This document shows positions 20,369-59,920 of a stretch of DNA of 64,000 bases, one piece after another. The translations under genes and the position numbers were made by a program. The notes beneath the pieces were generated by a model. The model worked only from the letters and a program-made list of their open reading frames with translations. It was not told where the DNA came from and searched no databases. The stretch spans positions 224,001-288,000 of the forward strand of contig CAWCDG010000007.1 of NCBI GenBank assembly GCA_963794325.1, in the 5' to 3' direction. The DNA is from an uncultured delta proteobacterium (GTDB lineage Bacteria > Desulfobacterota > Binatia > Binatales > Binataceae). Position 1 is the first letter of the stretch. Each line of letters begins with the position of its first letter.

Positions 20369-21578
20369 GTGCCGGGTGGCCGACTAGTGCACGCTGAAGG
20401 CAAGGTGGAGCCCGGTTTCGAAGCAGTCCGCGACGCATTCGCCGAGGCACAAGCTCAGGACGAAGGCGGCGCGCAGTTGTGCGTCTATCAGCATGGCAAG
20501 CGAGTGATCGATCTGTGGGCGGGAACCGACAAGCTCAATCGCCGTCCCTATACCGCCGATACGATCACGATTTTGATGTCGTGTACCAAGGCGGTCACCG
20601 CCGTTTGCGTGCACATGCTCGCCGAGCGCGGACTGATCGACTATGACGCGCCGGTCGCGCGCTATTGGCCGGAGTTCGCGGCGCAAAGACAAAGGCGCAA
20701 TCACGGTTCGCGATATCCTCGCGCATCGAGCAGGCCTGATGGGCTTCAACGAAGAAGACGAAATATTCGGGCCCAATCTGTTCGACTGGAACCGATGCAC
20801 CGCGGCGCTCGCGAACATGGAGCCGTGGTGGAAGCCTGGTTCGGCCTACTTCTATCACGCGTTGACCTTTGGCTATCTGGCCGGCGAGATCGTGCGCCGC
20901 GTCTCCGGAAAAACCGTCGGCGCATTTGTCGAAGCGGAAATCGCCGGGCCGCTCAAGCTTGACCTGTGGATCGGCCTTCCCGCCGACCGGGAGCATCGCG
21001 TCGCACCGCACATCGTTCCCGCCAAGCAGCTGAGCGACGAGCAACTGCGCGCGGTCTTCTCCGGCTTGGGCTTGGACATGAACTCACGCCCGGCGCGCGC
21101 AGCCTTTGCCATGGCGACAACCACAGCCGAGGGTCTGAATCTAATAAACACGCGCGAGGCTCACGCCGCACAGTTGCCTTTCGGCAACGGCATCGCGAAT
21201 GCGCGCGCTCTCGCGAAGATGTATGCCGCGCTTATCGGTGAGATCGACGGCGTCCGCCTGCTGACCCGCGAGACTATTGAGCGTGTGCGCGAGTCGCAGA
21301 ACGAAAACATCGGAGCGCCCGCCTCGCTGAAGCCGCTGGCGGGTTCGGGGCCGCAGAGATTTGGCCTGGGTTTCGAGTTGCCGCGTGCGATCGAACCGAT
21401 GCTCGGTGCTGGCTGCTTCGGTCACGGAGGTGCGGGCGGCCGGATGGCGTTCGCGCATCCTGAATCCGGCATCGCGGTGGCCTACGTCTGCAACAGCATG
21501 TTGTGGGACGGCTTCAGCGGTCCCGACCAACGATGGCTCGGATGGACCAAGGCATTGCGCGACGTGCTCGGTATCTGA
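20369..21578 (+). CDS. serine hydrolase, beta-lactamase/EstA family (apparent +1 frameshift at about 20684-20687)
   Basis: SCTK motif and VARYWPEF in the first frame; KGAITVRDILAHRAGL, YHALTFG, FGHGGAGG in the second; start 20369 or 20387. Confidence 0.85.
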
Positions 21579-24018: not shown

Positions 24019-24537
24019 CTAGGCGAACAGCATCTTTCTCAGCGCCGGCAACAGGCGCATTTCCTCACTGTCGATCAAATCGTCCAGCTTGACCGCGAGC
24101 GCACACAGAGCCTTGCCGGCCGCAGAGACAACTTTGTCTGGATCCTCTTCGAACGATACGCCGATCAGCTTGCCAATCAAGGAGCGCATCTCGCGATGGC
24201 TCTTCTTGATTCGGTTCACGACCTCGGGCGACAGGCCGCCCGCCCCCTTCGCCGCCCATGGCAACACGGTCTCATCTTCGCTGAGCAGATGCTGATTGAG
24301 TTGCGGCTTGAGCGTTTCCCAGCAGCGCTGCGCCTGCGCGCGCATCTCGCGATCCGCCGGCTTGAATCCAAGGATAACCCCGGCCACCGCCGCGTCGAGC
24401 AGCGGTATCCCGAGACTGAATTCCTCGCGGCTCAGTTCTTCCGTGATATTCCGGATCTTGCGGTTGTCGGTGCGCTTTGCCGCGCGGATCGACGACGACT
24501 TTTTGACGGCGCTCATATTGGTCTTCATAGTACTCAC
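24019..24537 (-). CDS. hemerythrin/HHE-like protein, partly degenerate
   Basis: HLLSEDETVLP, SHREM, SEEMRLLP repeats. Confidence 0.6.
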   Translation of the reverse strand: MSTMKTNMSAVKKSSSIRAAKRTDNRKIRNITEELSREEFSLGIPLLDAAVAGVILGFKPADREMRAQAQRCWETLKPQLNQHLLSEDETVLPWAAKGAGGLSPEVVNRIKKSHREMRSLIGKLIGVSFEEDPDKVVSAAGKALCALAVKLDDLIDSEEMRLLPALRKMLFA

Positions 24538-24965
24538 CAGTAGTTCGCTTCAATCTTCGATGCGGGGAACGCTGCTTCAACGACGACTCCGCCATTCCAA
24601 TTCATTGTTCGTGCCTGAACCTCGCGAGCGATTTCGCCGCCGAGATCATGTGGAATTAGAGCGGACAATCCAGGATTTGCATCCTTTGGACACAGTTATC
24701 TGATGCCCTTGGCAACACAAGGTCGCAGTTCGAAGCGCCGTACGCGTTACCCGATCTCTGGACCGCAAACCTCCATTTCCGTTCTGCAAGGAACATTTCT
24801 GCTAAATCGTCCTGGATTCAGTCGCGATGGAACTTCCGATGACTTGCCTGTTCTGCGAGAAGTTTCTCGGCAGGCGCCATCGATGGTCGGGGACAGTTTG
24901 TTTCACCAGCAGCGGTAGCGAACGCGAGTCTCGGGCATTGGCAGGCACCAGGGAGTTGGTCCCTA

Positions 24966-24981
24966 GGGCACAAATGTTGCT
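24966..24981 (+). promoter_or_regulatory. sigma54 -24/-12 promoter of the porin-cytochrome-Rieske/cytb operon
   Basis: GGGCACAAATGTTGCT: GG-N10-GC, 45 nt before ATG 25027. Confidence 0.7.
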
Positions 24982-25026
24982 CTCAGACTAATGCGCCGGA
25001 CGCTTCGGCGCTGATCGGGGGAAGCT

Positions 25027-26586
25027 ATGCGGACAAGACGAATTATCGCGGGGCTGTTCTGTACTCTCGGTATGACATTGACGCTCGCGGGCTTGGCGCG
25101 CGCCGCTGACAGCGACGCCACCGACGCCGCTGCGCTCAAGGAAATCCGGGCCGAGATGCGCCAACTGCGCGAGGAGCGCAAACATGACCGCGCGGAGATT
25201 CGCTCGCTCGAGGGCAAGGTTCAACAACTCGAGTCGAAGGATTCGAAAGTCGAAGCCACCACTCAGCAGCTGCAGAGCACCGACCAGAAGCTCAAAGAGA
25301 CCACGCTCGAGCTTCAGCAGACCAATCAGCAAGTGAAGACCTTGCAGACCAAGGTCGACGCGCCAATCCCGCCGGCGCAGTTCACTAACGTTGTCGATCG
25401 CTACCTCGGATCGCACACCTTCACCGTAACCGGCGCGGCGGGCGGTCAATTCATCTTCGACCAGCAGAGCGGCGCGCTCGACAATCTCCATCACGCGTCG
25501 CAGAACTCGTTCTTCTTCGATTGGGAACCGATGATCCTCTACCGCCCGGCGGACTGGATCCTGTTCCAGGGAGTATTCAGCGCCGGATTTGGAGCGACCG
25601 GGACGGGAACCGATCTGTCAACGGCTGATTTCCAGATTTTTCTCAACGACTACATGACGGTCGAAGCCGGCCTTTTCGATCAGCCCTTCGGCGACTGGTA
25701 CGAGACCCAGAGCCCGATGTGGGTGAATCGGTTTGTCACTGCGCCACTGCCGTTTGGAGTAGAACCGGTTGTCCCACCGGGAGAGCTTGGAATCCAGCTT
25801 CGCGGCGGTATGCAATTCGGAGCGCTCGGCCAGGATTTCGATTGGACGGTCTGGGGCGGCAACGGACCGAATTTCAGCTCGAACGTCCTCGGCGCAGCGA
25901 TGTCGAGTCCGACCGCCGTCGCGTTCAGCCAGACCAACGGCAAGTCGATCGGCGCGCGCTTTCGAGTCTACCCGCTACCGGTTGATACGAAGTGGGGACG
26001 GCTCGAGCTCGGCGCGTCCACCTACAACGGCAAGTGGAACAACGGAGATTGGTTCAACTCGTGGGGCGTGGATTTCAATTACTTCGTCGGCAACCTGCAG
26101 ACCCGCGGCGAGTGGCTGTCATCGTATCGCCAGATGCCGATGGGGCAGGCGTCCGACAATCGACAGGGATGGTACGTGCAGGCCGGTTACTTCCTGAGCG
26201 GGGTTAAAGTCCCCGGCCTTCCCGACGTGATCAACAATTACCTCCGTCGATTCGAGCCGCTGGTGCGTTACTCGGGAGTAAACCAGCGCGGCGTTTCGAC
26301 CGACGACATCCAGGGCGCAACCGGCGTTGGGCTGGGCGGCACCCAGGTGGGACTGGTCCCCGATTTCGGCATCAACGGGTCGCCGGCCACCTACGCGCCG
26401 CACTCGCGCGAGGTGGCATTGGCCCTCGACTACTGGATCGCGCCGTCGATCGTCTGGCAGAACGAATTCGACATCGAGCTGCCACGCGCAGGAGGAGTAT
26501 TCGTCTCCCCAACCGGAGCCCAGACGGCGGTCGGCTCGGTCCCCAACGATCACGCGTTCCTCAGCCAATTCACGATCGGATTCTGA
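25027..26586 (+). CDS. outer-membrane beta-barrel (porin-like) with N-terminal coiled coil
   Basis: signal peptide, long Q/K/E heptad region, aromatic alternating strands, C-terminal QFTIGF. Confidence 0.8.
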   Translation: MRTRRIIAGLFCTLGMTLTLAGLARAADSDATDAAALKEIRAEMRQLREERKHDRAEIRSLEGKVQQLESKDSKVEATTQQLQSTDQKLKETTLELQQTNQQVKTLQTKVDAPIPPAQFTNVVDRYLGSHTFTVTGAAGGQFIFDQQSGALDNLHHASQNSFFFDWEPMILYRPADWILFQGVFSAGFGATGTGTDLSTADFQIFLNDYMTVEAGLFDQPFGDWYETQSPMWVNRFVTAPLPFGVEPVVPPGELGIQLRGGMQFGALGQDFDWTVWGGNGPNFSSNVLGAAMSSPTAVAFSQTNGKSIGARFRVYPLPVDTKWGRLELGASTYNGKWNNGDWFNSWGVDFNYFVGNLQTRGEWLSSYRQMPMGQASDNRQGWYVQAGYFLSGVKVPGLPDVINNYLRRFEPLVRYSGVNQRGVSTDDIQGATGVGLGGTQVGLVPDFGINGSPATYAPHSREVALALDYWIAPSIVWQNEFDIELPRAGGVFVSPTGAQTAVGSVPNDHAFLSQFTIGF

Positions 26587-26597
26587 GGGGGATGATC

Positions 26598-26882
26598 ATG
26601 AGAAAAATACTTGCAACAATATTGCTGGCAACAATTGCGATCGGATGGAGTGGGACTTCAGCTCGGGCGCAGCAGGATGAGATGACGCCGGCTGAGCACA
26701 AGCGCCTGTTCCGTGAAGGTGCCAAGCTGTGGCCGGTTTACTGCAACACCTGTCATAACGCGCGGCCGGGCTCCGAGAAGGCGCCTTATGAGTGGGATCA
26801 GATCATGATGCACATGCGGACGCTCGGGAACTTCCCGCCCGAGGACGCCAAAGCGATTTTGGAATACCTCAAGGCCCGCTGA
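26598..26882 (+). CDS. periplasmic monoheme cytochrome c
   Basis: signal peptide, CNTCH, distal Met candidates in IMMHMR. Confidence 0.85.
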   Translation: MRKILATILLATIAIGWSGTSARAQQDEMTPAEHKRLFREGAKLWPVYCNTCHNARPGSEKAPYEWDQIMMHMRTLGNFPPEDAKAILEYLKAR

Positions 26883-26920
26883 TCAGGCTTGGGTTGCGCA
26901 ACAATGAAACGGAGGACGAT

Positions 26921-27277
26921 GTGAATCGAATCATCTCAATTCTTGGCGCATGCGCGATTGTCGCGTGCGCGTTTGCGCCGGCGAGCGCGGGCGACATGGC
27001 GGCGGCCAAGCAGAACTACGATACGTTTTGCGTGAAATGCCACGGCCCCGGCGGCAAGGGCGACGGTCCCGCCGCGGCGACACTTTCGACCAGCCCGCGC
27101 AATTTCACTGACTGCGCCGCGATGGGCAAGATTTCCGACGAGACGATGTTCAACGTGATCAAAAACGGCGGTGCCGCCGCGGGTCTCAGCAAAGACATGC
27201 AGGCGTGGAGCTCCGGCTTCGAGGACGGCGAAATTCACGACCTCGTCGCTTACGTCAGAACCTTCTGCAAGAAGTAG
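26921..27277 (+). CDS. periplasmic monoheme cytochrome c
   Basis: GGAGG SD and GTG 26921, signal peptide, CVKCHG..GKGDG, DMQAW. Confidence 0.88.
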   Translation: MNRIISILGACAIVACAFAPASAGDMAAAKQNYDTFCVKCHGPGGKGDGPAAATLSTSPRNFTDCAAMGKISDETMFNVIKNGGAAAGLSKDMQAWSSGFEDGEIHDLVAYVRTFCKK

Positions 27278-27290
27278 CAGCGCGACCGCG

Positions 27291-29210
27291 ATGAGCGATC
27301 AAAGATCGATCGACGCGACCCCGCGCGATTTGTGGTGGTTTCGCAAGAACGTGCCGTGCCTCGATGCGTGCCCGGTCAAGACCGACGCGGGCCGCTACGT
27401 CCAGCTGATCGCCGAAGGACGGCTGGCGGAAGCTTACCGCGTCGCTCGCTCGCCCAACCCGATCGCCTCGATATGCGGACGCGCATGCGGCGCGCCGTGC
27501 GAGGATGCGTGCCGCCGCGGCAAGATCGATGCGCCCGTGACGATTCGCGCACTCAAGCGCTTTCTCACCGAGCAGTTCGGCCCCGAAGCACTCTTATCGA
27601 AGGGAGTGCGCGAGATGATCGCGGGACCGTCCGGCGGCGGCAGTACCACTCCCGGCCACATCGACATTCCCGGCGCGCGACCGGATGCGGCCGGGTCGAA
27701 GCGCAAGGTTGCCGTCGTCGGCGCGGGGCCCGCCGGTCTCGCATGCGCTAACGATCTCGCGCTGATGGGCTACAGCGTGACGGTGTTCGAGGCGATGGAG
27801 CACGCGGGCGGCATGCTTCGATATGGAATTCCGGCTTACCGCCTGCCACGCGACGTCATCGACTGCCAGGTGAGCGAGATCGAAGACCTCGGCGTCGAGT
27901 TTCGCTACTCCACACCGCTCAAAGCCGGCTTCGGAGTTCGCGAGCTGAAGGCGCAGGGCTACGAAGCAATCTTTCTCGCCGTCGGCGCGTCGCGCGGGCG
28001 CGCGGTGCCGATCGAGGGCAGCGATGCCGACGGCGTGATCAAGGCGATCGACTATCTGCTCAATATCAATCGCGGCTACCGCGTTCCTCTCGGCGGCAAG
28101 GTCGTCGTCATCGGTGGCGGTCTCGTCGCAATCGATGCGGCGCGAACCGCTGTACGCGCGCTCGTACCCGGACTCGTCATGTCCGACGAGGAAGAGCAGA
28201 GCGTCGAGGCAGGTGCGATGCGCGTTGCGCTGGACGCGGCCCGCGAAGCAGCCCGGCGCGGCGCGCTCGAAGTTACCGTCGCGAGCCTCGAGTCCGATGC
28301 CGAGATGCCGGCGATGAAATCGGCGCAGGGCCGCGAGGAACTGGACATCGCGCGCGAAGAGGGCGTCACCTTCATGCCCGGATGGGGGCCGAAACGAGTC
28401 GTCATCCGCGACGGCCACGCCGTCGGAATCGAGCTGGTGAAATGCGTCAAGGTATTCGACGAGGCCGGCCGCTTCCGCCCGCAGTTCGACGAGACCAATA
28501 AGCGCGTGATTGACGCCGACGCTGTGATCCTCGCGATCGGCCAGGCGCCGGACCTGTCATTCGTCACGCCCGAAGACGGCGTCTCGGTCACGCCGGCGGG
28601 CACGCTGAAGATCGATCCCGTCACGCTCGAAACCGGCATCGCAGGAGTATTCGCAGGTGGCGATGCGGCCTTTCCCCCGAGTCTTCTGATCACATGCGCG
28701 CAGCATGGCAAGGTCGCCGCGCGCGGAATCGACGCATACCTGCGCGGCAAGCCGCTCGGCCAGCCGCGGATGCACGTCACGATCGAGGAACTCCCGACCG
28801 ACACCTACAAGATGGTCGATCAATACGAAAAGAAGCATCGCGATATCCCGCTGGTGCCGCTCTCGCGCCGCACCGGAATCACCGAAGTCGAGAGTACCTT
28901 CACTGCCGACGACGCGCGCGAGCAGGCCGACCGATGCCTCTACTGCCATATCCATCCGATCTACGACGGCGCGAAATGCATCCTGTGCAATCGATGCGTC
29001 GACATCTGTCCCGAGCACTGCCTGCACTTCACCCTCGCCGAAGAAATCGCCGACCAGGAACGCGTCGCCGGCGTGATCCCCGAAGCGCAGATGCGCAGCG
29101 CGTTTCTCTACGACGAAGCCAAATGCATCCGATGCGGCCTGTGTGCGACCCGATGCCCCACCTCGGCAATCACGATGGAGCGCTTCCAGTTCGAAGAGAC
29201 GGCCGGCTGA
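27291..29210 (+). CDS. GltD/DsrL-like NAD(P)H:Fe-S flavoprotein with C-terminal 2x[4Fe-4S]
   Basis: PCLDACP, ICGRACGAPCEDAC, VGAGPAG, GMLRYGIP, IGGGLVA, FAGGD, ADRCLYC, CILCNRCVDICP, CIRCGLCATRCP. Confidence 0.88.
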   Translation: MSDQRSIDATPRDLWWFRKNVPCLDACPVKTDAGRYVQLIAEGRLAEAYRVARSPNPIASICGRACGAPCEDACRRGKIDAPVTIRALKRFLTEQFGPEALLSKGVREMIAGPSGGGSTTPGHIDIPGARPDAAGSKRKVAVVGAGPAGLACANDLALMGYSVTVFEAMEHAGGMLRYGIPAYRLPRDVIDCQVSEIEDLGVEFRYSTPLKAGFGVRELKAQGYEAIFLAVGASRGRAVPIEGSDADGVIKAIDYLLNINRGYRVPLGGKVVVIGGGLVAIDAARTAVRALVPGLVMSDEEEQSVEAGAMRVALDAAREAARRGALEVTVASLESDAEMPAMKSAQGREELDIAREEGVTFMPGWGPKRVVIRDGHAVGIELVKCVKVFDEAGRFRPQFDETNKRVIDADAVILAIGQAPDLSFVTPEDGVSVTPAGTLKIDPVTLETGIAGVFAGGDAAFPPSLLITCAQHGKVAARGIDAYLRGKPLGQPRMHVTIEELPTDTYKMVDQYEKKHRDIPLVPLSRRTGITEVESTFTADDAREQADRCLYCHIHPIYDGAKCILCNRCVDICPEHCLHFTLAEEIADQERVAGVIPEAQMRSAFLYDEAKCIRCGLCATRCPTSAITMERFQFEETAG

Positions 29211-29671
29211 TGGACGGCGATCGGCGAAAAATCCTGCGCTTCATCGGCAAGGGCTCGGTGTTGGCGGCGTTCCTCGCGCAGATCGGCGCGGCCGGCCGCG
29301 CGTTTTTCCCCAACGTGCTCTACGAGCCGCCGAACCGCTTCAAACTCAAGAAGCCCGACGATTACCCCGACGGCTACACGCTCGATGCGACGCATCGCCT
29401 TTACGTGATCCGCCAGAAAGATGCGTTCCACGTTATCTCCGCGATATGCACGCATCTCGGATGCAACGTGCAGTGGATGGACACCGAGTTCGACTGCCCG
29501 TGCCACGGCAGCCGCTTCCGTCCCGACGGCACGGTTATCGCGGGACCCGCGCCGCGTCCTCTCGATTGGTTTGCGACTACGGTTTCGCCCGACGGGTATC
29601 TCGAAGTCGATAGCTCAAAAGACGTTGCGCGCGACTTCCAGTTGATAATCGGCGGAAAGGCCAAGGCCTAG
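29210..29671 (+). CDS. Rieske [2Fe-2S] subunit
   Basis: Tat-like DRRKIL, CTHLGC and CPCHGS boxes, GPAPRPL; TGATG coupling to upstream gene. Confidence 0.93.
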   Translation: MDGDRRKILRFIGKGSVLAAFLAQIGAAGRAFFPNVLYEPPNRFKLKKPDDYPDGYTLDATHRLYVIRQKDAFHVISAICTHLGCNVQWMDTEFDCPCHGSRFRPDGTVIAGPAPRPLDWFATTVSPDGYLEVDSSKDVARDFQLIIGGKAKA

Positions 29672-29673
29672 CG

Positions 29674-30975
29674 GTGGGCGACAAAATCAAGGCGCTCTGG
29701 CGCAAGACTTCGTGGGCATGGTCGCCCGAAAGCGATCGCGAATCCTCCGAGGCCATCGTCAAAAATTTCTGGCTGCACTGGTTCCCGGCCAAAGTCGCGC
29801 GCGCCAGCATGGACTGGAACTACTCGTTCTGGCTCGGCACCGCGTCCGCGTCGCTGCTGCTAATCCTCACCGTCACCGGCGTGATGCTGATGTTCTTTTA
29901 CGTGCCCTCTACCGAGCGCGCCTACGGCAGCATCAAGGATTTGCAGTACGCCGTCAGCTTCGGCCGCCTGCTCAGAAACCAGCACCGATGGGCCGCCGAG
30001 GGCATGGTCGCCGTCGTGTACATCCACATGGCGCGAGTATTCTTCACCGGCGCCTACCGTGGCCCCCGCGCAATCAACTGGGTAGCCGGCGTCGTCCTCT
30101 TCCTCGCGACGCTGTTCTTATCGTTCACCGGCTACTTGCTGCCATGGGACCAGCTCGCATTCTGGGCAATCACAGTCGGCACCAGCATCGCAAAGCAGGC
30201 GCCATTCGTCGGACCAACAATTCAGTTCATTCTTCTGGGCGGCCATGAAATCGGACAGCAGACGCTGCTCCGATTTTACGTGCTGCACGTTTTTTTCCTG
30301 CCGGTCTTCGTCTGGATCCTGTTCGCCTATCACATGTGGCGCGTCCGCAAGGACGGCGGCCTCGCGGCGGTCGAGCGCATCCGCAATGACCGCGTGATGG
30401 TGCCGAAGGCGACGCCGAAGACCAAGAGCTACTCGCTGTTTGGAATTACGCCGGGCACGTCGGTGGCTGTGATGAGCTCGACGGGCCTCGAAGAATCCGA
30501 CCAGGTTTTCTCGTCGCCGAACATGTCGCGGCGAATCGCGCTGGTCTTCCTGATCGTGTTCAACCTCACCCTGCTCGCCGCGATCCTGTTCAACGCACCG
30601 CTCGAAGGTCTCGCCAATCCTGCTGTCACACCGAATCCGGCGAAGGCGCCCTGGTACTTCGTCTGGCTGCAGGAGCTGGTCGCGTCGACCACGATTCGCC
30701 TTGGCGATTTCACCGTCAGCGGTGCGCTGCTCGGTGGAATACTGCTGCCGGGATTTCTACTCGCGGTGCTGACGGCGTGGCCGTGGCTCGATCGTTCGCC
30801 ACGTCGCGCGGAAGGGCGATGGCTCGCGCCCGAGCGCAAGCGCCAGAATGCGACCTTCGCCATCGCGACCCTCGCGATCATCATCCTGATCATGGTCGGG
30901 GTTTATCTGCGCGGTCCCTACTGGCGAATCTACTGGCCCGGCCAACCGCGCCCCGAGACGCCGCGGCTCTACTGA
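29674..30975 (+). CDS. cytochrome b/b6 fused to subunit IV
   Basis: HRW..H and LH..H His pairs, FTGYLLPWDQLAFWA, PNPAKAPWYF (Qo-motif variant). Confidence 0.93.
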   Translation: MGDKIKALWRKTSWAWSPESDRESSEAIVKNFWLHWFPAKVARASMDWNYSFWLGTASASLLLILTVTGVMLMFFYVPSTERAYGSIKDLQYAVSFGRLLRNQHRWAAEGMVAVVYIHMARVFFTGAYRGPRAINWVAGVVLFLATLFLSFTGYLLPWDQLAFWAITVGTSIAKQAPFVGPTIQFILLGGHEIGQQTLLRFYVLHVFFLPVFVWILFAYHMWRVRKDGGLAAVERIRNDRVMVPKATPKTKSYSLFGITPGTSVAVMSSTGLEESDQVFSSPNMSRRIALVFLIVFNLTLLAAILFNAPLEGLANPAVTPNPAKAPWYFVWLQELVASTTIRLGDFTVSGALLGGILLPGFLLAVLTAWPWLDRSPRRAEGRWLAPERKRQNATFAIATLAIIILIMVGVYLRGPYWRIYWPGQPRPETPRLY

Positions 30976-30976
30976 C

Positions 30977-31903
30977 ATGGCCGACAAGCGCGAATCATTC
31001 GAATCGAAGGACTTCGGCTGGATGGTCGCGATGTCGATCCTGTTCCTCGCGCTGGTCGTGGTCTGCTTCTGGATAGAGTTCAGCACCGAGTGGGGAGGCT
31101 ATCAACGAGAGTTTCCGCAGTTGCTCGGTCACTACGGCAAGGTGGAGGACGCGCGCGACTTCCGCCCGGGGATTCAGCAAATCTGGATTCCCAAGATTGG
31201 TGTCACCGATCGATGCATCACGTGTCACCTGGGTTATGAATGGTCGTCGGTGTTGCCGGCTACGATCGCCGAGCCGCTGAAGCCGCATCCGATGAACGAC
31301 TGGATTGCGAAGCATGAGTTCGCGAAGTTCGGATGCACGCCGTGTCACGGCGGTGACGGAGCAGCGACCACTGTCATGGGGGCGCATCAGGGCGGTCGGG
31401 GATGGGAAGATCCGATGCTCTCGCGCGCGCTCGCGGACCAAAATGGGCTCACGATGAACGAGATGATGCAGATGCGATGCAACTTTTGTCATCGCCACGA
31501 TGCCGCTACTCCGGGGATGGACGAGATCAATCTCGCCAAGGTGCTATTCAAGAAGAAAAAATGCCTGCTCTGCCACGTCGTCGAAGGCCGCGGCGGCGCC
31601 ACCGGCCCCGAGCTGACCTACGAAGGCGACCGGAATCCGGAACTGCTGAACTTCGCACACGTAACCGGTGATCACACGATGTTCAACTGGAACGTCCAGC
31701 ATCTGACCAAGGCCAGCGCGGTCTCGCCGAAAACCGCGATGCCTGATTTCAACTTCAAGCCCGACGAGTCGCGAGCGCTAACCCTCCTGCTGCTAAGTTG
31801 GCGCCGCCTCACCTACCCCCCGGAATACATCCCCGACCCCGAAGTAGCCGCATCCGCAACGCAACCATCGCCAACCCCAACCGCAACTCCTGTCGCGCGT
31901 TGA
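30977..31903 (+). CDS. membrane-anchored tetraheme cytochrome c
   Basis: N-terminal TM helix; CITCH, CTPCH, CNFCH, CLLCH; AMPDF. Confidence 0.9.
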   Translation: MADKRESFESKDFGWMVAMSILFLALVVVCFWIEFSTEWGGYQREFPQLLGHYGKVEDARDFRPGIQQIWIPKIGVTDRCITCHLGYEWSSVLPATIAEPLKPHPMNDWIAKHEFAKFGCTPCHGGDGAATTVMGAHQGGRGWEDPMLSRALADQNGLTMNEMMQMRCNFCHRHDAATPGMDEINLAKVLFKKKKCLLCHVVEGRGGATGPELTYEGDRNPELLNFAHVTGDHTMFNWNVQHLTKASAVSPKTAMPDFNFKPDESRALTLLLLSWRRLTYPPEYIPDPEVAASATQPSPTPTATPVAR

Positions 31904-31919: not shown

Positions 31920-32614
<695 letters not shown>

Positions 32615-32720
32615 CTTAGCGAAGATTTGCAATCTGGCCTGCAAAGTTGGGCGCAGCCTTCAAATGCTCAGTCGAATGATGCCCTCGCGCTCGCCGTTGC
32701 AATGCAGGAGAGGGTCGAAC

Positions 32721-33186
32721 AGCCTGCCCTGAGCCTTGCCGAAAGTTGAGGGTCCTTCTGAAGTGGCACAGGCTTTAGCCTGTGATTCTTCTTCCGCGCG
32801 CGATTCAAGATTCCGCTCCGCATTCTTGTCCTTGTGTCATTCCAGAGCGCGTCCGGATGAGCCGCTTCCACCAGCCGAAGCCCTGAGCGCACCCGAAGGG
32901 GAAGAATCCCGCCTCCGATCTTCGCCTCGCCCCGTCAGGGCGAGGATCGAAGAGCCTGCCCTAAGCCTCGCCGAAGGGTGAGGGCCCTTCTGAAGTGGCA
33001 CAGGCTTTAGCCTGTGATTCTTCTTCCGCGCGCGATTCAAGATTCCGCCCCGCATTTCTTGTCCCTGTGTCATTCGGAGCGCATCCCGATGATTCCGCAT
33101 CCACCAGCGGAAGCCCTGAGCGCAGCCGAAGGGGAAGAATCCCGGCTCTTCTCTTCCCCTCGCCCCGTCAGGGCGAGGATCGAAGG
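32721..33186. repeat. tandem duplication of an about 232-bp composite REP/MITE-like unit
   Basis: units start at 32721 and 32953 and share ccttctgaagtggcacaggctttagcctgtgattcttcttccgcgcgcgattcaagattccgc and gccccgtcagggcgaggatcgaag. Confidence 0.9.
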
Positions 33187-33545
33187 TGAGGGTCCGCTTA
33201 CGGCGCGCGATTCTCGCGCGCGAGTTTGGATTCTTTTCTCGCTCAGACTGTTGCCAGCGATCTGGGAATTGGCCCACCAATCGAACCGGAAGTTCTCAAG
33301 TGGCCCGCAAGTTGAGTCGCCCTTGGTGCGGTCTTGAGAAAGTGCGGTTCATGACAACCGCTGTCCGTACTAATCAAAAATGTGCACGAAGCTCACGCCT
33401 CAGTATTTGGAAACCGCTATTCGCGTGCTACGATCCACTCGGTTTCGTTAGGGGGCATCGAGTTCGTTGGTTAAACGTCAGCCATACGTGCAAGGCAATG
33501 CGGGCCACTGCGGTCGGAACGCAATCTAGCGTCCGAGCGCCGAGA

Positions 33546-34353
33546 ATGCTCAAACTTCCGTTCGGTCCGGAAGCTCTCCGCATCCGTCCGCCGCTCAAAT
33601 GGGCCGGCGGAAAGCGATGGCAAGTGCGGCATCTGCACGACAATCTGGAGACCACACAATCATCGAAGACTGGTCGAACCGTTCTGCGGCGGTCTCGCTA
33701 TTACACTAGGACTGGCACCTTCTTGCGCACTACTTAATGATGTGAACCCTCACCTCATTAATCTATATCGCTGGTTAAAAAGAGGACTGAAGCCAACGAT
33801 CTCGATGAAACACAATTCCAAGGCATATTACGCGCAGCGCGTTCGCTTCAACGAATTGCTGTCAGCCGGCAAGGCTGATACTGCCGAAGCTGCGACATTG
33901 TTCTACTACCTGAATCGAACCGGCTATAACGGACTTTGTCGTTTCAATAACAAGGGCCACTTCAACGTTCCGTTCGGTCGCTATAAGAAGATCGACTATC
34001 GTAGCGATTTCACTGAATATAAGAAGGCCTTTGCCCAGTATGAGTTCACGAATACCGATTTCGAGAAGCTGGAGCTTCATCCCGAGGATTTCGTGTACGC
34101 TGATCCGCCTTACGATGTAGAGTTCACTCAGTACTCGACGGGCGGCTTTGGCTGGGAAGAGCAGGAACGCGCAGCAGAATGGCTGGCAAAACATCGCGGT
34201 CCGGTAGTGCTGTCGAATCAGCGGACAGAGAGAATAGAAAAGCTATATGCGAAGCTCGGATTCTCCGTCACATTACTATCTGCGCCACGGCTAATCAGTT
34301 GTAACGGCGACAGAACCCCGGCGCGGGAAGTATTGGCGACGCTCAACCTGTAG
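33546..34353 (+). CDS. Dam/D12-class N6-adenine DNA methyltransferase (apparent +1 frameshift at about 33636-33641)
   Basis: LKWAGGK in the first frame; VEPFCGG, LNDVN, YLNRTGYNGL.RFN..G.FNVPFG, YADPPY in the second. Confidence 0.9.
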
Positions 34354-34357
34354 TGCC

Positions 34358-34771
34358 ATGCCCGGAAACACTCGAACCGGCAGTGTTCTGGAATTAACAA
34401 TCCTGCCTGCCTTAGATCGTGGCGGCTACCACCATCGCGCGCAAATTGAGATTGGCCAACGCCTCGGCTGCGGTAAACACATAGTTGATATAGTCGCAGA
34501 GAAAGATGGCCGCGAGTTCCTAATTTCGTTAAAGTGGCAGCAAGTCGCTGGCACAGCGGAACAGAAGGTCCCGTTTGAAGTGATATGTCTCTTAGACGCA
34601 ATCGAACGGGGAAGGTACTCCAAGGCGTACTTAGTACTCGGAGGAGAGGGATGGAAGTTACGACAGTTTTATATAAATGGCGGCTTGAACCGCTTTCTTT
34701 CTGTGGAAGATAGGGTCGAGATCGTCACATTAGAAGGATTTATCGCTAAAGCAAACTCGGCGCGGCTATGA
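34358..34771 (+). CDS. PD-(D/E)xK nuclease, putative restriction endonuclease
   Basis: LE..I..AL helix, VDIV, ISLKWQQVAGTAEQK; directly downstream of the methylase. Confidence 0.75.
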   Translation: MPGNTRTGSVLELTILPALDRGGYHHRAQIEIGQRLGCGKHIVDIVAEKDGREFLISLKWQQVAGTAEQKVPFEVICLLDAIERGRYSKAYLVLGGEGWKLRQFYINGGLNRFLSVEDRVEIVTLEGFIAKANSARL

Positions 34772-34777
34772 GTAAAA

Positions 34778-35617
34778 ATGGCTGACGACAATCTCAAAGA
34801 TCAGCGCGCGGCGTTCGAGTTCCTACGCGAAAAGTTCCGCTCCCAGGATGCGTTCACAAAGCACGATCTTGAGCAGAAAACCGGCTGGGTTTGGAAATCG
34901 GTAACTACATATTGGTCCAAACAGTTCGAGCCCTTCGTCAAGCCAGTCTCCCCGATCCTAAAGGGGGCTGCGCAGAAAGACCAAAAGTTCAGAGTAACTA
35001 GAGCGTTCTTGCCTTTTGGCACGTGGACGAAGTTCCGTCGGCACGTCAGCCAGAAGCGGCGTCTAACCTTTCACTACGATCACACAAGCTACGACACAGT
35101 TCTGTTGTTCGATTTTTTTCTCCCGCTTACGAATGAAACAGTGCTTCGGATGTCTCTCGATTCCCTGTTCTACAAGGACACAATCCAGAAGCAGCTACTC
35201 GCCATTGGCATTCAGACACTACGCACGCACTTCAAAGGTGCCGAAGGCGCAAGCGACGACGCTTTCCTACAAGAACTTACCGGGTGGATTGGCGATCACT
35301 TCGGAGGCTATTCGATCAGCCACGTCAATGGCCGATTTAAGGCGCGACCCGATAAAGGCGAACCAGCGATGCTCACTATGCAAGAGGCAACGGCACTTCA
35401 AGAACGCGCCGGGCGGTATCTCATTGACGAAACCACCGCGATCACTCGCTTCATCTTTCCGTGTCACGATAGGGAAGAGGCTGAAACGGTTCGATGGTTC
35501 TTCTTCGAATTATTCGTCGAAAGCGTAACCGAAGTAAGTGGCGAAGCTGAAGTTTGGATGATCGAGAGCGGTCTGCAAACTCGTTTGCATATCTGGAATG
35601 TCAAACAAGAATCGTAA
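34778..35617 (+). CDS. hypothetical 279-aa protein in methylase operon
   Basis: 6 nt after nuclease stop; atypical codon usage; no family recognised. Confidence 0.7.
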   Translation: MADDNLKDQRAAFEFLREKFRSQDAFTKHDLEQKTGWVWKSVTTYWSKQFEPFVKPVSPILKGAAQKDQKFRVTRAFLPFGTWTKFRRHVSQKRRLTFHYDHTSYDTVLLFDFFLPLTNETVLRMSLDSLFYKDTIQKQLLAIGIQTLRTHFKGAEGASDDAFLQELTGWIGDHFGGYSISHVNGRFKARPDKGEPAMLTMQEATALQERAGRYLIDETTAITRFIFPCHDREEAETVRWFFFELFVESVTEVSGEAEVWMIESGLQTRLHIWNVKQES

Positions 35618-35966
35618 GATCAGTCAGGTTAGAGTTCGTCCGGCTATTGGCGACACCGACGTGCGGGTTTGGCTGCGCGCGAATGGCTACGACGACGTGG
35701 CCGATCAAATTGATCAAATGATGGTTCGCTGGAAAGCGCAGGGCAAGGCAACCCGGCGCAACTGGTGGGAAATTCTCGCCGGAGACAAGAGTGGCAATCC
35801 TCGCATTGCTGGAGGCAAGAAGTTTCCGATATTGCGCGCTGCGCGTATTCGGCAAGGTCTCGGAACAGATGTCCCAAACTTGCTGTGCAGAAACGTAAAC
35901 GAACAGGCACCCCCTGTCCGCAACCCTCCACGATGGTCCGGAGAACGAGGGCAACGTTCCAACTGA
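35598..35966 (+). CDS. hypothetical 122-aa basic protein in methylase operon
   Basis: overlaps the previous stop; WL..NGY.DVA..I, TRRNWWE.LAG look like conserved-type motifs. Confidence 0.6.
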   Translation: MSNKNRKISQVRVRPAIGDTDVRVWLRANGYDDVADQIDQMMVRWKAQGKATRRNWWEILAGDKSGNPRIAGGKKFPILRAARIRQGLGTDVPNLLCRNVNEQAPPVRNPPRWSGERGQRSN

Positions 35967-36037
35967 AAGTTCTCCCATGGTCGCGCTCTATGACCGCGCC
36001 GGCGCGACCATTCCCAATCACCGGCCAACCCAGGAGC

Positions 36038-44453: not shown

Positions 44454-44469
44454 AGCAAAGCCCCTGCCA
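44454..44469 (-). promoter_or_regulatory. sigma54 promoter of the methyltransferase-ABC-YceI operon
   Basis: minus strand TGGCAGGGGCTTTGCT (GG-N10-GC). Confidence 0.75.
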
Positions 44470-46178: not shown

Positions 46179-47588
46179 ATGGGGCAGATACTTATCGTAG
46201 ATGACGAACCGCATTTGCGGCGGATACTGATCTCTAATCTGAAGCAGGAACATCACGAGGTCGTCGAGGCGGCCGGCGTCAACGACGCGCGCGTCGCGCT
46301 TGGCGAGCATACCTTCGACGTTGTGATCACCGATCAAAAGATGGCCGACGGTGAAGGATTGGACGTCCTGGCGGCGGCGCGCGAAGCTGATCCGAGCCTG
46401 TCGGTGGTTTTTCTGACGGCGTTTGCGACGATTGAACTTGCGGTCGAGAGCATGCGCCGCGGCGCTTTTGATTTCATCACCAAGCCGTTCATCCCCGAAG
46501 TCTTGCTCGCATCAGCGACCCGCGCGATGGAACATACGCGGCTGGTGCGCGAGAACACGCGGCTTCGCGACACGGTCGTGCGCCTCGAAGGCTCGTCGGA
46601 GATCACCGGACGCAGCATCCCGATTCGCCAGCTTCGCGAGCAGATTGCGCGGGTCGCACCGACCAACGCGACCGTCCTCATCACCGGAGAAACCGGTTCC
46701 GGCAAGGAGCTCGTCGCGCGCGCGATTCACCATAGCAGTCTGCGCGCCGAGCAGCCGTGGGTCGCGATCAATTGCGCCGCGTTCACCGAAACCCTGCTCG
46801 AAAGCGAGCTGTTCGGACATGAGCGCGGAGCGTTCACCGGCGCCGATCGCGCGCGCGAGGGAGTTTTCGAGGCTGCCCACGAGGGCACGCTCTTTCTCGA
46901 CGAGGCTTCCGAGATGTCGCTCCCGGCACAAGCCAAGCTGCTGCGGGTGCTGACTGACGGGCTCATCACGCGGCTGGGATCGACCAAGCCCCGGCACACC
47001 GATGTGCGATTGCTGGTCGCAACCAACCGCGATTTGAAAAAGCGGGTGCAGGAAGGACGCTTTCGCGAGGATCTATACTACCGGCTCGCGGTAGTTCCGC
47101 TCACGGTCCCGCCTCTGCGCGACCATCGCGAAGATATCCCGGAGCTCTGCGCTCTTTTTCTGGCGCAAGCGGCGCGCGATCTGAAGACGCCGCCACGCAG
47201 AATGACCGTCGAGGCGCTGCACACGTTACTCAGCTACGAATTTCCCGGAAATATCCGGGAACTCCGCAACCTCATAGAGCGCGCGTGCATTCTCTCAGCC
47301 GGCGAGGAGATCGCCCCGGAGAATTTCCCGGTGTCGGCGCCGCGCAGCGCAAATGGCGTCGTGTCCCGCAGTTCCGCCGAACTCACTCCCGATCAACTCG
47401 CCGACATGATTCCGGAGACGCACAATCTTCGGGACTTCCTGGCCTCGCTCGAAAAAGCCGTGATTCAGCGCGCGCTGAAAATCGCCGATGGCGCGCAGGC
47501 GGAAGTGGCGCGACGCCTTGGAATGTCGCGCAGCGATCTTTCCTACAAACTCGGCAAGCATCGCATCAAGGATCAGTCCGGCCAATGA
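46179..47588 (+). CDS. NtrC-family sigma54-dependent response regulator
   Basis: ILIVDDE receiver, GETGSGKE, GAFTGA, FLDE, Fis-type HTH. Confidence 0.95.
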   Translation: MGQILIVDDEPHLRRILISNLKQEHHEVVEAAGVNDARVALGEHTFDVVITDQKMADGEGLDVLAAAREADPSLSVVFLTAFATIELAVESMRRGAFDFITKPFIPEVLLASATRAMEHTRLVRENTRLRDTVVRLEGSSEITGRSIPIRQLREQIARVAPTNATVLITGETGSGKELVARAIHHSSLRAEQPWVAINCAAFTETLLESELFGHERGAFTGADRAREGVFEAAHEGTLFLDEASEMSLPAQAKLLRVLTDGLITRLGSTKPRHTDVRLLVATNRDLKKRVQEGRFREDLYYRLAVVPLTVPPLRDHREDIPELCALFLAQAARDLKTPPRRMTVEALHTLLSYEFPGNIRELRNLIERACILSAGEEIAPENFPVSAPRSANGVVSRSSAELTPDQLADMIPETHNLRDFLASLEKAVIQRALKIADGAQAEVARRLGMSRSDLSYKLGKHRIKDQSGQ

Positions 47589-55474: not shown

Positions 55475-55731
55475 GATACTACCCACACGGTATGTTTCAG
55501 CGTTCCTCCTCCTCCCTAGGCTAGGTTCCCTCACGATTGCAAATCTTCCATTTCATGCCCATAGTCGGTAAAAAGTACACGGAAAAAATTACCGACTCGC
55601 TAGGTCTCCGCTAACGTTTTGAGTAAAAATCATCGATGAATCATAGTGTTTTTGGATCGGCGACCCGTCGCATAATTGTTGCACTGCATCGGGCGGGGAA
55701 ATAACGCCTTGGTGTGCGCTGGGAGATCCGA

Positions 55732-57099
55732 ATGTCTAATGAAATTCGAGTTCTGATCGCAGAAGACGACGTCAACACCCACGAGGAGTGGCGCGAGTCG
55801 CTCACGGCTTGGGGCTTTCGGGGCGAGATCGCCGAAGACGGCGTGCGGGCCCTGGAGCTAATCCGCAGCTTCGATCCGCACATTCTGCTCTCCGATCTGA
55901 GGATGCCGCGCAAGGGCGGACTCGAGTTGCTGCATGACATCCACGAGCTCGGCATCAGTCTGCCGACCATCATGATCTCCGGGCAGGGCGAGATACCCGA
56001 TGCGGTCGAGGCGCTCAAGCAGGGCGCGATCGACTACATGCGCAAGCCGGTTGACCCGACCCATCTTCAGCGCGTGCTGAAGAACATCGCCGACAACATT
56101 AGTATCCGCGAAGAGAATTCGAACCTGCGCCGGCGGCTGGCCGAGGTTGGCGAGCTGGGCCCGCTGTTCGGGCGGTCGCTGCCGATGCGCAAGGTGATAA
56201 CGGCGATCGAGCGGCTGGCGCAGTCGTCGGCGTCGGTGGTGATAACCGGCGAGAGCGGCACCGGCAAGGAGTTGGTGGCGCGCACGATTCATGAGCTGTC
56301 GCCGCGGCGCGATGCGGCCTACGTGCCCGTCAACTGCGCGGCGATTCCCGAGACTCTGATGGAGAGCGAGCTGTTCGGCCATGAGCGCGGCTCGTTTACC
56401 GGCGCCGACCGGCGCAAGGAAGGATGCTTCGAGGTGGCCAACGGCGGCACCTTGCTGCTCGACGAATTGACCGAGATGAAGACCGAGTTGCAGCCCAAGC
56501 TGCTGCGAGTGATCGAGGAGCAGCGGCTGCGCCGGGTAGGCGGGACGACCGAGATACCGCTGGACGTTCGAGTGCTGGCGTCCTCGAATCGCGACATCGA
56601 GCAGGCGGTGCGTGAGGGCAAGCTTCGTTCGGACCTGTTCTATCGGTTAAACGTATTCACGATCATACTGCCCCCGTTGCGCGAGCGTATCGACGATCTG
56701 CCGCAGCTCGCGCAGATGTTCGTAAATCACTACGCGGCGCAGAACAAGAAGGATGTGACCGGGGTCGACGAGGAGTGTATGAAGTCGCTGCAGGCGCATC
56801 CGTGGCCCGGCAACGTGCGCCAGTTACGCAACGTGATCGAGCGGGCGCTGATCGTGTGCGAGGGCCGCACCATTCGCAAGCCCGACCTGCCCGACGATTT
56901 TCGCGCGGCGACCGGCGGCGGCGATGGCGGCTTCATAAAGATTCCGCTGGGCACTTCACTCGACGATGTCGAAAAGGAGATGATCTCGCGCACTATCGAG
57001 TTCACCGCGGGCAATAAAACCCGCGCGGCGGAAATCCTTGGGGTGAGCGCCAAAACTCTGTACAACAAACTCGAACGTTTCGGCTCCGAGCGCACCTGA
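55732..57099 (+). CDS. NtrC/AtoC-family sigma54-dependent response regulator
   Basis: VLIAEDD, LSDLRMP, GESGTGKE, GSFTGA, GNKTRAA..LG HTH. Confidence 0.95.
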   Translation: MSNEIRVLIAEDDVNTHEEWRESLTAWGFRGEIAEDGVRALELIRSFDPHILLSDLRMPRKGGLELLHDIHELGISLPTIMISGQGEIPDAVEALKQGAIDYMRKPVDPTHLQRVLKNIADNISIREENSNLRRRLAEVGELGPLFGRSLPMRKVITAIERLAQSSASVVITGESGTGKELVARTIHELSPRRDAAYVPVNCAAIPETLMESELFGHERGSFTGADRRKEGCFEVANGGTLLLDELTEMKTELQPKLLRVIEEQRLRRVGGTTEIPLDVRVLASSNRDIEQAVREGKLRSDLFYRLNVFTIILPPLRERIDDLPQLAQMFVNHYAAQNKKDVTGVDEECMKSLQAHPWPGNVRQLRNVIERALIVCEGRTIRKPDLPDDFRAATGGGDGGFIKIPLGTSLDDVEKEMISRTIEFTAGNKTRAAEILGVSAKTLYNKLERFGSERT

Positions 57100-59904: not shown

Positions 59905-59920
59905 TGGCCCTATACTTGCT
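59905..59920 (+). promoter_or_regulatory. sigma54 promoter candidate
   Basis: TGGCCCTATACTTGCT (GG-N10-GC). Confidence 0.65.

Follow-up and report, generated by a model that had tools for sequence, protein, structure and literature searches.

The window analysed here is a stretch of 64,000 nucleotides (nt) from an uncultured member of the Binataceae, Candidatus Binatus, which is common in soil (assembly GCA_963794325.1, contig CAWCDG010000007.1, positions 224,001 to 288,000), and it carries at 24966..31903 on the + strand an operon of seven closely packed genes that probably moves electrons between something extracellular, most likely iron, and the quinone and NADH pools. The operon is made of two separable modules: a cassette encoding a porin-like protein and two monohaem cytochromes c (cytc1 and cytc2), and a core encoding an iron-sulphur (Fe-S) flavoprotein, a Rieske subunit, a cytochrome b and a multihaem cytochrome c. 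The best explanation of our data, to which we give a probability of roughly 55%, is that a sigma-54-dependent operon joins these two modules into one cross-envelope electron path. The new part of the operon is the unfused porin-cytochrome cassette, which we read as a putative functional analogue of the Cyc2 iron oxidase, while the core is already known in kind.

The porin gene (25027..26586, +; signal peptide, N-terminal coiled coil and a weak PF07396 match) is followed by cytc1 (26592..26882, +), a secreted monohaem class I cytochrome c with the haem motif CNTCH, assigned by Pfam and its signal peptide, and by cytc2 (26921..27277, +), a secreted monohaem cytochrome c (CVKCH) matching PF13442 and PF00034. 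The 53 related loci that we compared come from metagenome-assembled genomes (MAGs) carrying the labels Candidatus Binatus, Binataceae or Binatia; 45 have both porin and cytc1, seven have neither, and the remaining locus starts inside cytc1 at a contig end. The gap between them measures 3-28 nt in 42 loci, and cytc2 is present in 53/53. In a sample of 301 genomes of the class (family, 49; genus, 16) the flavoprotein was detected in 69 (19 of the family and 14 of the genus) and the porin in 50, including 39 of the 49 family genomes, a family count that falls to 37/47 without two genomes flagged as unpublished (G479 and G600; L and G numbers are our handles for loci and genomes). Every family genome with the flavoprotein also has the porin (19/19), just upstream on the same contig in 18 of the 19, and 20/49 have the porin without the flavoprotein. 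At 20 porin loci lying away from the core, cytc1 follows the porin in all 20 and cytc2 follows cytc1 in 16. The partners of these cassettes vary. Two lie inside caa3-type cytochrome c oxidase clusters, with the gene orders COX1-COX3-porin-cytc1 (L094) and COX1-COX3-x-porin-cytc1-haem O synthase, further on with a CoxII fused to cytochrome c (L095); in L085 and L088 the gene after porin-cytc1-cytc2 encodes a NirK-like two-domain copper protein, which at 159 bits falls short of the TIGR02376 cut-off of 296; and in L099 the cassette precedes a Rieske gene and a cytochrome b-c fusion, again with no flavoprotein. The cassette is therefore portable between respiratory enzymes. Porin and cytc1 also changed as a unit. 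Compared with the window, L007 and L012 have porins that are 52 and 50% identical and cytc1 proteins that are 59 and 51% identical, against 94 and 91% for the flavoprotein; the operon genes other than porin and cytc1 are approximately 78-95% identical and the inner-membrane genes above 90%, and porin and cytc1 have thus diverged together as a divergent allele. The original prediction, made from the sequence of the window, had treated the seven genes as one indivisible set, and this does not hold, given the core without a porin in other classes and the cassette without the core in the 20 family genomes. Its pairing of porin and cytochrome has fared better, being supported by the joint presence and absence of the two genes, by the 20/20 further loci, by the controlled docking of cytc1 and by replacement with a Cyc2-type gene in sister lineages.

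The porin matches PF07396 (Porin_O_P) at E 1.2e-4, with a whole-protein score of 21.9 bits against a cut-off of 20.9 and no single stretch above the cut-off, and few of its homologues carry a precomputed match to this family. It contains no CXXCH, and its coiled coil spans approximately residues 31-111. The AlphaFold2 model (confidence scores pLDDT 68 and pTM 0.61) consists of a long N-terminal helix and a barrel of 16 strands, and its best Foldseek matches are the trimeric diffusion porins OmpC, OprP (2o4v), OmpM1, Omp32, OprO and DcaP, with 2o4v at rank 2 and 4rjw (OprO) at rank 11, so that the model has the 16-strand, OprO/OprP-like form. Its partner cytc1 is a 70-residue monohaem class I cytochrome c with the haem motif C51xxC54H55 and an invariant H74-M75, for which no solved relative was found below E 0.06. 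Eight longer proteins were found as possible fused forms of cytc1; the five that were read are frame-shifted gene calls containing the signal peptide of cytc1 itself. Complex prediction with porin residues 116-519, haem and cytc1 residues 27-96, run three times, gave interface scores (ipSAE) of 0.85, 0.86 and 0.04 (median 0.85), against 0.00 for the best of three controls. The 0.85 mark is reached by 116/157 solved complexes and by 2/215 mismatched pairs, a calibration that is only approximate here given our own alignments and the haem included as a ligand. The runs agree in at least 34% of contacts, with a partner pLDDT of at least 70. Contacts were mapped with both barrel termini facing the periplasm, and all confident porin contacts then lie at periplasmic strand ends and turns or at residues 232-233; these are assigned to the long loop joining strands 5 and 6 and contact the haem ligand of cytc1, His55. 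The porin interface is more conserved than the rest of the barrel (0.84 vs 0.71; Mann-Whitney p 0.002, indicative only, the sequences being related). Our models thus predict that cytc1 docks at the periplasmic mouth of the barrel with its haem side toward the pore.

Six Binatia loci lack porin and cytc1 (L015, L016, L017, L020, L025 and L031), and in each the slot is filled by a protein of 465-490 residues with a signal peptide, the motif VPS[F/Y]ARQTGLAC..CH and a remainder rich in strands, whose last residue is aromatic. Keffer et al. describe the Cyc2 signature as AXPXFAR[Q/K][T/Y] before CXXCH and PXL after it (PMC8406198), and the slot protein, here called Cyc2-like, has a motif that matches this consensus; the motif is present in 6/6 proteins, with PEL after the haem motif in three and LEL in three. 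Outside the family, 16 genomes carry a flavoprotein at least 60% identical to ours, and the adjacent gene is Cyc2-like in 11 (once on the opposite strand), a porin in three and neither in two; the Cyc2-like alignment found no match in any of the 49 family genomes. The Cyc2-like protein matches no Pfam or NCBIfam family. The looser core pattern [F/Y]AR[Q/K][T/Y/F]-x(1-8)-CxxCH has no match in the six-frame translation of the genome under study, and the operon does not encode the single polypeptide of Cyc2 (signal peptide, N-terminal CXXCH and a porin of at least 365 residues), cytc1 being separate and having its own signal peptide. Since the two barrels show no sequence homology, two unrelated outer-membrane haem-pore solutions appear to alternate before one orthologous inner-membrane module. 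In the Cyc2-type loci a conserved secreted protein of 155 residues, consisting of a coiled coil and a C-terminal domain with no family match, is encoded between Cyc2 and cytc2 (L020:7055-7522; also L015, L016, L017, L025 and L031); its coiled coil shows no homology to that of the porin (E 41). Literature listings on Cyc2 with Rieske, NADH and glutamate synthase, and on monohaem cytochromes with porins, yielded no description of an unfused porin-cytochrome pair. The word "unfused" is absent from the 2026 review PMC13741234 and from PMC10654088, and the listings and abstract openings of publications naming both Cyc2 and Binat* draw no link between the two.

What the cassette shares with Cyc2 and Cyt572 (PMC8406198; PMC13741234) is an OprO/OprP-like barrel of 16 strands combined with one c-type haem at its periplasmic side. 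The Cyc2 barrel has itself been modelled on OprP and OprO templates (PMC8406198), and the AlphaFold3 model of Cyc2PV-1 in a review places the cytochrome domain on the periplasmic side (PMC13741234). In both systems a periplasmic cytochrome comes next, followed by an oxidase or a bc complex, and Cyc2 homologues take the same slot in sister Binatia. Unlike Cyc2, the cassette encodes two polypeptides, cytc1 is a 70-residue class I cytochrome with a His-Met pair and without AXPXFARQT, and the porin has an N-terminal coiled coil. With no Cyc2 motif in cytc1 and no homology between the barrels, the analogy therefore rests on position and architecture. The rus (cyc2-cyc1-cox-rus) and petI (bc1, uphill) operons of Acidithiobacillus ferrooxidans (PMC13741234) likewise encode an outer-membrane and a periplasmic cytochrome with an oxidase, as in L094 and L095, or with a bc complex, as in the window, but here there is no rusticyanin, the bc complex has its own NAD(H) flavoprotein rather than complex I, and no RuBisCO was found. 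MtrCAB, MtoAB and PioAB share with the cassette a periplasmic c-type cytochrome encoded beside an outer-membrane barrel, but form a 26-strand sheath around a membrane-spanning decahaem wire, as opposed to 16 strands and one haem at the periplasmic mouth. An Mtr-like sheath was ruled out by strand number (16) and haem count (one per partner). The envelope conduit that had been proposed for the operon is thus upheld as a porin-cytc1 pair and not as an Mtr- or Pio-type multihaem sheath, a 16-strand barrel with a monohaem protein being Cyc2-like. OprP, OprO and DcaP resemble the porin in fold and in the weak PF07396 match, and DcaP, like this porin, has an N-terminal coiled coil; we know of no dedicated cytochrome partner for any of these porins.

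The core begins with the cytoplasmic flavoprotein (27291..29210, +; 639 residues, GltD/NfnB-like, with Fer4_20, Pyr_redox_2 and a C-terminal 2x[4Fe-4S] domain), which lacks a signal peptide and has 17 Cys positions that are invariant in 61/61 sequences. Its dinucleotide-site motif reads SLES, as opposed to YRRS in some relatives, which would suggest NADH rather than NADPH. The Rieske [2Fe-2S] subunit (29210..29671, +; Pfam and NCBIfam) has a twin-arginine N-terminus and the motifs CTHLGC...CPCHGSRF, and the cytochrome b (29674..30975, +; Pfam and NCBIfam) is a fusion of b6 and subunit IV with haem ligands His104/118 and His205/220 and the Qo motif APWY. The four haem-ligand His and His35 are invariant in 60/60 sequences, and the ligands are spaced 14 residues apart in helix B and 15 in helix D, presumably the b6 type. 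The last gene (30977..31903, +) encodes a membrane-anchored cytochrome c with an N-terminal hydrophobic helix and four CXXCH at residues 80, 120, 168 and 196, confirming that a tetrahaem protein replaces c1/f; it has no relative in the PDB, and its orthologues in other lineages carry 5-7 haems. The core is widely conserved: among the 53 related loci Rieske is present in 52 and cytochrome b and multihaem c in 51 each, the misses being loci cut at a contig end. Fourteen loci of other classes in the same GTDB phylum, with flavoproteins 38-52% identical, were examined as well: 12 have Rieske and 11 have cytochrome b, two being cut and one having the flavoprotein without either. The flavoprotein-Rieske order is kept in 52/53 and 12/14 of these loci, with a 1-nt stop/start overlap in 31/46. 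In the window the flavoprotein stop TGA (29208-29210) and the Rieske ATG (29210-29212) have the A in common, so the TGATG overlap that had been noted is real. Neighbours of the core in other classes, where it occurs without the porin, are NosZ/NosD (L060, L062), nitrite oxidoreductase (NXR)- or nitrate reductase (NAR)-like molybdoenzymes and sigma-54 activators.

The closest solved relatives of the flavoprotein are 9bov/9bp5 (E 8e-80) and NfnA/NfnB, 9bp5 being the NfnABC entry that was matched to Kuste4570 of Kuenenia stuttgartiensis (PMC12954380). For the Rieske subunit, the one subunit compared with Kuenenia by sequence, the top PDB matches are 9rk4 and 9rk3 (E 6e-23; next match 1e-14), which are Kuste4569 and Kustd1480, Rieske subunits of Kuenenia complexes with a putative NAD(P) oxidoreductase (PMC12954380, Table 1). 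These complexes, Kuste4569-4574 and Kustd1480-1485 (Kartal 2013; de Almeida 2016, as cited in PMC12954380 and PMC5600118), resemble the core in that a single operon encodes a Rieske protein, a multihaem cytochrome c, a cytochrome b of the b6 type with subunit IV, and a cytoplasmic multi-Fe-S FAD/NAD(P) protein; the Rieske protein of the core has its nearest solved relatives in theirs, and the two flavoproteins match the same structural relative best. Dibrova et al. (PMC5600118) report high expression in Kuenenia of the complexes that hold cytochrome b together with the large oxidoreductase subunit, and note that genes for such oxidoreductases are found close to those for cytochrome b "in many other cases"; published AlphaFold3 models dock the oxidoreductase subunit in the Kuenenia complex and propose an extra haem bound by His (PMC12954380). 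A CxGG haem cN site is reported for the cytochrome b of planctomycete members (PMC5600118). Here the motif is absent from cytochrome b, where the stretch reads SFWLGT and the first 100 residues contain no Cys. The operon further differs from those of Kuenenia in the fusion of cytochrome b with subunit IV, in the four haems of its cytochrome c and in the lack of an octahaem partner resembling hydroxylamine oxidoreductase (HAO); moreover, no RuBisCO was found, and related genomes are described with an aerobic respiratory chain. The porin-cytochrome cassette that heads the operon is another difference, as is the dinucleotide motif, presumably of the NADH type. Judged by its sequences, the core belongs to the anammox type of Rieske/cytochrome b module that comes with an NAD(P)-type flavoprotein, a known kind that is still uncharacterised; this supports the original prediction of such a module in a non-anammox organism.

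The source assembly (4.45 Mb, 10 contigs, 85% complete) holds three cytochrome b loci including the window operon, the same number of Rieske/cytochrome b systems as in Kuenenia, and a single copy of a flavoprotein of this kind. The second locus (G000 contig C6:41997-46918) encodes b6, subunit IV and a 931-residue octahaem cytochrome c, with a likely Rieske gene on contig C9, and the third (G000 contig C2:307059-309896) encodes Rieske, a cytochrome b-c fusion and a dihaem cytochrome c beside oxidase genes. Some Binatus MAGs (L007 and L012; L009 and L011) hold two complete seven-gene operons on separate contigs. A search for quinone pathways in the source genome gave no MqnA/D match and no ubiquinone-hydroxylase match above the cut-off. 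The RuBisCO large subunit was not found in this 85% complete genome nor in five Cyc2-bearing Binatia genomes of unknown completeness, and autotrophy by the Calvin-Benson-Bassham (CBB) cycle was set aside on this ground.

Our reading of the operon is that a small redox-active solute, most likely Fe2+, would enter the porin and exchange an electron with cytc1, that cytc2 would act as a soluble shuttle carrying the electron across the periplasm, and that the tetrahaem cytochrome would take or give electrons on the periplasmic side and connect to the Rieske centre. The flavoprotein would link the b haems to NAD(H), a contact that we infer by homology to Kuenenia. Our best guess is an inward route, in which electrons would pass from the reductant through cytc1, cytc2, the tetrahaem cytochrome and the Rieske centre to the Qo site. 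Inward flow needs a low-potential second electron at Qo, which NADH could supply via the flavoprotein and the b haems; with a high-potential sink the reverse could run, quinol reducing NAD+ by bifurcation. Iron is favoured as the solute because the only Cyc2 activity reported in PMC8406198 and PMC13741234 is Fe(II) oxidation, and uptake is favoured because cytochromes c serve oxidases and NirK-type enzymes as electron donors, so that these partners of the cassette hint at uptake more than export. Uptake would also parallel the rus and petI operons of Acidithiobacillus (PMC13741234).

Several observations weigh against this reading. The porin was modelled as a monomer with its coiled coil left out, real OprP-like porins are trimers, and one of the three complex runs with cytc1 scored 0.04. 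The model of the Cyc2-like protein is poor (pLDDT 36, from six sequences), the porin family and the Cyc2-like barrels show no sequence homology (hhalign E 0.21), and cytc1, an ordinary class I cytochrome c, does not carry the Cyc2 motif. The haem cN motif, which lies on the electron path proposed for Kuenenia, is missing from cytochrome b. Inward flow would spend NADH without obvious benefit, and with no RuBisCO found, classical iron lithoautotrophy by the CBB cycle is without support. An ordinary diffusion porin, possibly anion-selective like OprP, could instead admit a nutrient while the cytochromes link Rieske/cytochrome b to terminal enzymes, with no redox chemistry at the outer membrane. 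The match of the fold to general and phosphate porins, the weak Porin_O_P match, the run at 0.04, the origin of the cytochromes in common class I families and the ordinary respiratory enzymes next to the cassettes all agree with such a porin. It would, however, leave unexplained that every locus keeps a dedicated cytochrome gene just 3-28 nt after the porin and that a Cyc2-type cytochrome-porin takes its place in sister lineages, and the two runs at 0.85-0.86 with controls at 0.00, together with the conserved interface, also speak against it; we therefore consider it unlikely.

Electrons could also flow outward, quinol, or NADH via the flavoprotein, being oxidised by Rieske/cytochrome b and the electrons leaving by way of the tetrahaem cytochrome, cytc2 and cytc1, with a soluble compound outside the cell, for instance Fe(III) in acidic soil, as acceptor and with NAD+ reduction by bifurcation possible if the potential of the acceptor is high. 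This comes closest to the conduit of the original prediction. Two points favour outward flow through the core and count against inward flow: c-type cytochromes are what Rieske/cytochrome b complexes normally reduce, and the homologous core lies next to NosZ/NosD (L060, L062) and further terminal enzymes. The proposal for Kuenenia is likewise forward bifurcation (PMC12954380). On the other side, all Cyc2 activity shown in PMC8406198 and PMC13741234 is oxidation of Fe(II), and within cytochrome c oxidase clusters and before NirK-like genes the cassette can only be a donor, which makes the outward chain rather improbable. The flavoprotein, finally, might serve another pathway as a soluble, NAD(P)H-dependent Fe-S enzyme and share no more than the operon with the rest, which would form a normal complex III. 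GltD/NfnB proteins form a very large family (7917 at E <=1e-20 among 8000 candidates scored) and the two other cytochrome b loci of the genome could do the standard job, but the flavoprotein stays next to Rieske down to 38-52% identity, often with a stop/start overlap, its C-terminal ferredoxin domain and 17 Cys are invariant, and the expression of cytochrome b + oxidoreductase complexes in Kuenenia (PMC5600118) and the AlphaFold3 docking (PMC12954380) link the two kinds of subunit. We regard this explanation as very unlikely. The cross-envelope path from porin to quinone and NADH pools is hence the reading that we prefer, its substrate, its direction and the contact between flavoprotein and cytochrome b being inferred.

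The products of the seven genes match families in Pfam and NCBIfam, and the intergenic gaps are 5, 38, 13, -1, 2 and 1 nt. Both borders of the operon are genes on the opposite strand, hemerythrin and P450 upstream and a VapC/Phd pair downstream. The gene families and the sigma-54-type promoter named in the original prediction were confirmed, with two gene starts corrected: cytc2 starts at the in-frame GTG at 26921 behind GGAGGA, not further upstream, and Rieske at the ATG at 29210-29212. The sigma-54-type -24/-12 element GGGCACaaatgTTGCT (GGGCAC-N5-TTGCT; 24966..24981, +) has one mismatch to TGGCAC-N5-TTGCW, which we take to be the consensus. The window contains three -24/-12-like sites vs 1.37 expected, and 17/100 shuffles contain at least three, so that GGGCACaaatgTTGCT alone is not significant. 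The element is kept (<=2 mismatches) in 31/40 orthologous upstream regions, 21-74 nt before the called porin start, and these regions align poorly apart from it; GG at -24, GC at -12, the fixed spacing and conservation before the first gene are thus all found. Approximately 100 nt upstream of the -24 element lies the near-palindrome CGAGAAGTTTCTCG (24856..24869, +), a weak candidate for an activator-binding site, which is the sole near-palindrome of 14-18 nt (<=2 mismatches) within 24660-24966 and falls in a region that is partly conserved in the alignment of orthologous upstream regions. A search with 15-mers, allowing up to three mismatches, found no motif common to the window's three -24/-12-like sites. 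In L026, L060 and L062 the related operons are immediately preceded by genes for sigma-54 activators. The window itself holds two such genes (46179-47588 and 55714-57099, +) and the further -24/-12-like sites at 44454-44469 (-) and 59905-59920 (+), and the genome has approximately 20 strong PF00158 matches.

The divergent gene upstream of the operon (24019-24537, -) encodes a hemerythrin (HHE), possibly a sensor of oxygen, iron or NO that is linked to the operon; a homologue lies upstream on the opposite strand in 23/53 related loci. Directly after the operon, the VapC/Phd toxin-antitoxin pair (31920-32572, -) is followed at approximately 32000-36000 by a stretch of lower GC (0.52-0.56) that encodes a D12 adenine methyltransferase and a PD-(D/E)XK nuclease and may be a mobile or restriction-modification island. 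Approximately 7 kb upstream lies a molybdopterin oxidoreductase gene (PF00384/PF01568; 15959-18262, +) and then an acyl-CoA dehydrogenase gene. The overlapping open reading frames at 20369-20962 and 20643-21578 (+) match the N- and C-terminal parts of PF00144 (Beta-lactamase / serine hydrolase) and look like a single gene broken by a frameshift or an assembly error.

For the group as a whole, the operon adds a Rieske/cytochrome b complex to the picture of the Binatota, whose genomic description reports alternative complex III and does not contain the terms "Rieske" and "cytochrome bc" in its main text, although its supplements may list more (PMC8262859). The function of NAD(P)-linked Rieske/cytochrome b complexes is unproven, and this operon connects that core to a periplasmic input that is simple and defined. 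The two small outer-membrane genes are suited to expression in Escherichia coli, as done for Cyc2. As a tentative and bolder extension, porin and cytc1 may be an unrecognised two-component outer-membrane oxidase of iron or another small reductant, of an origin separate from Cyc2 yet interchangeable with it and portable to oxidases, NirK-like reductases and Rieske/cytochrome b, whose electrons would merge with those derived from NADH at Qo in a reversal of anammox bifurcation. Surveys of Cyc2 rely on the fused haem motif, so an unfused porin-cytochrome pair would escape them, and if the pair functions as we propose, the uptake of electrons from iron or other extracellular sources in acidic soils and peat would be under-counted. 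Under the bolder extension the Binataceae, which are abundant in acidic soils and peat and in whose genomes no RuBisCO was found, would be cryptic iron oxidisers.

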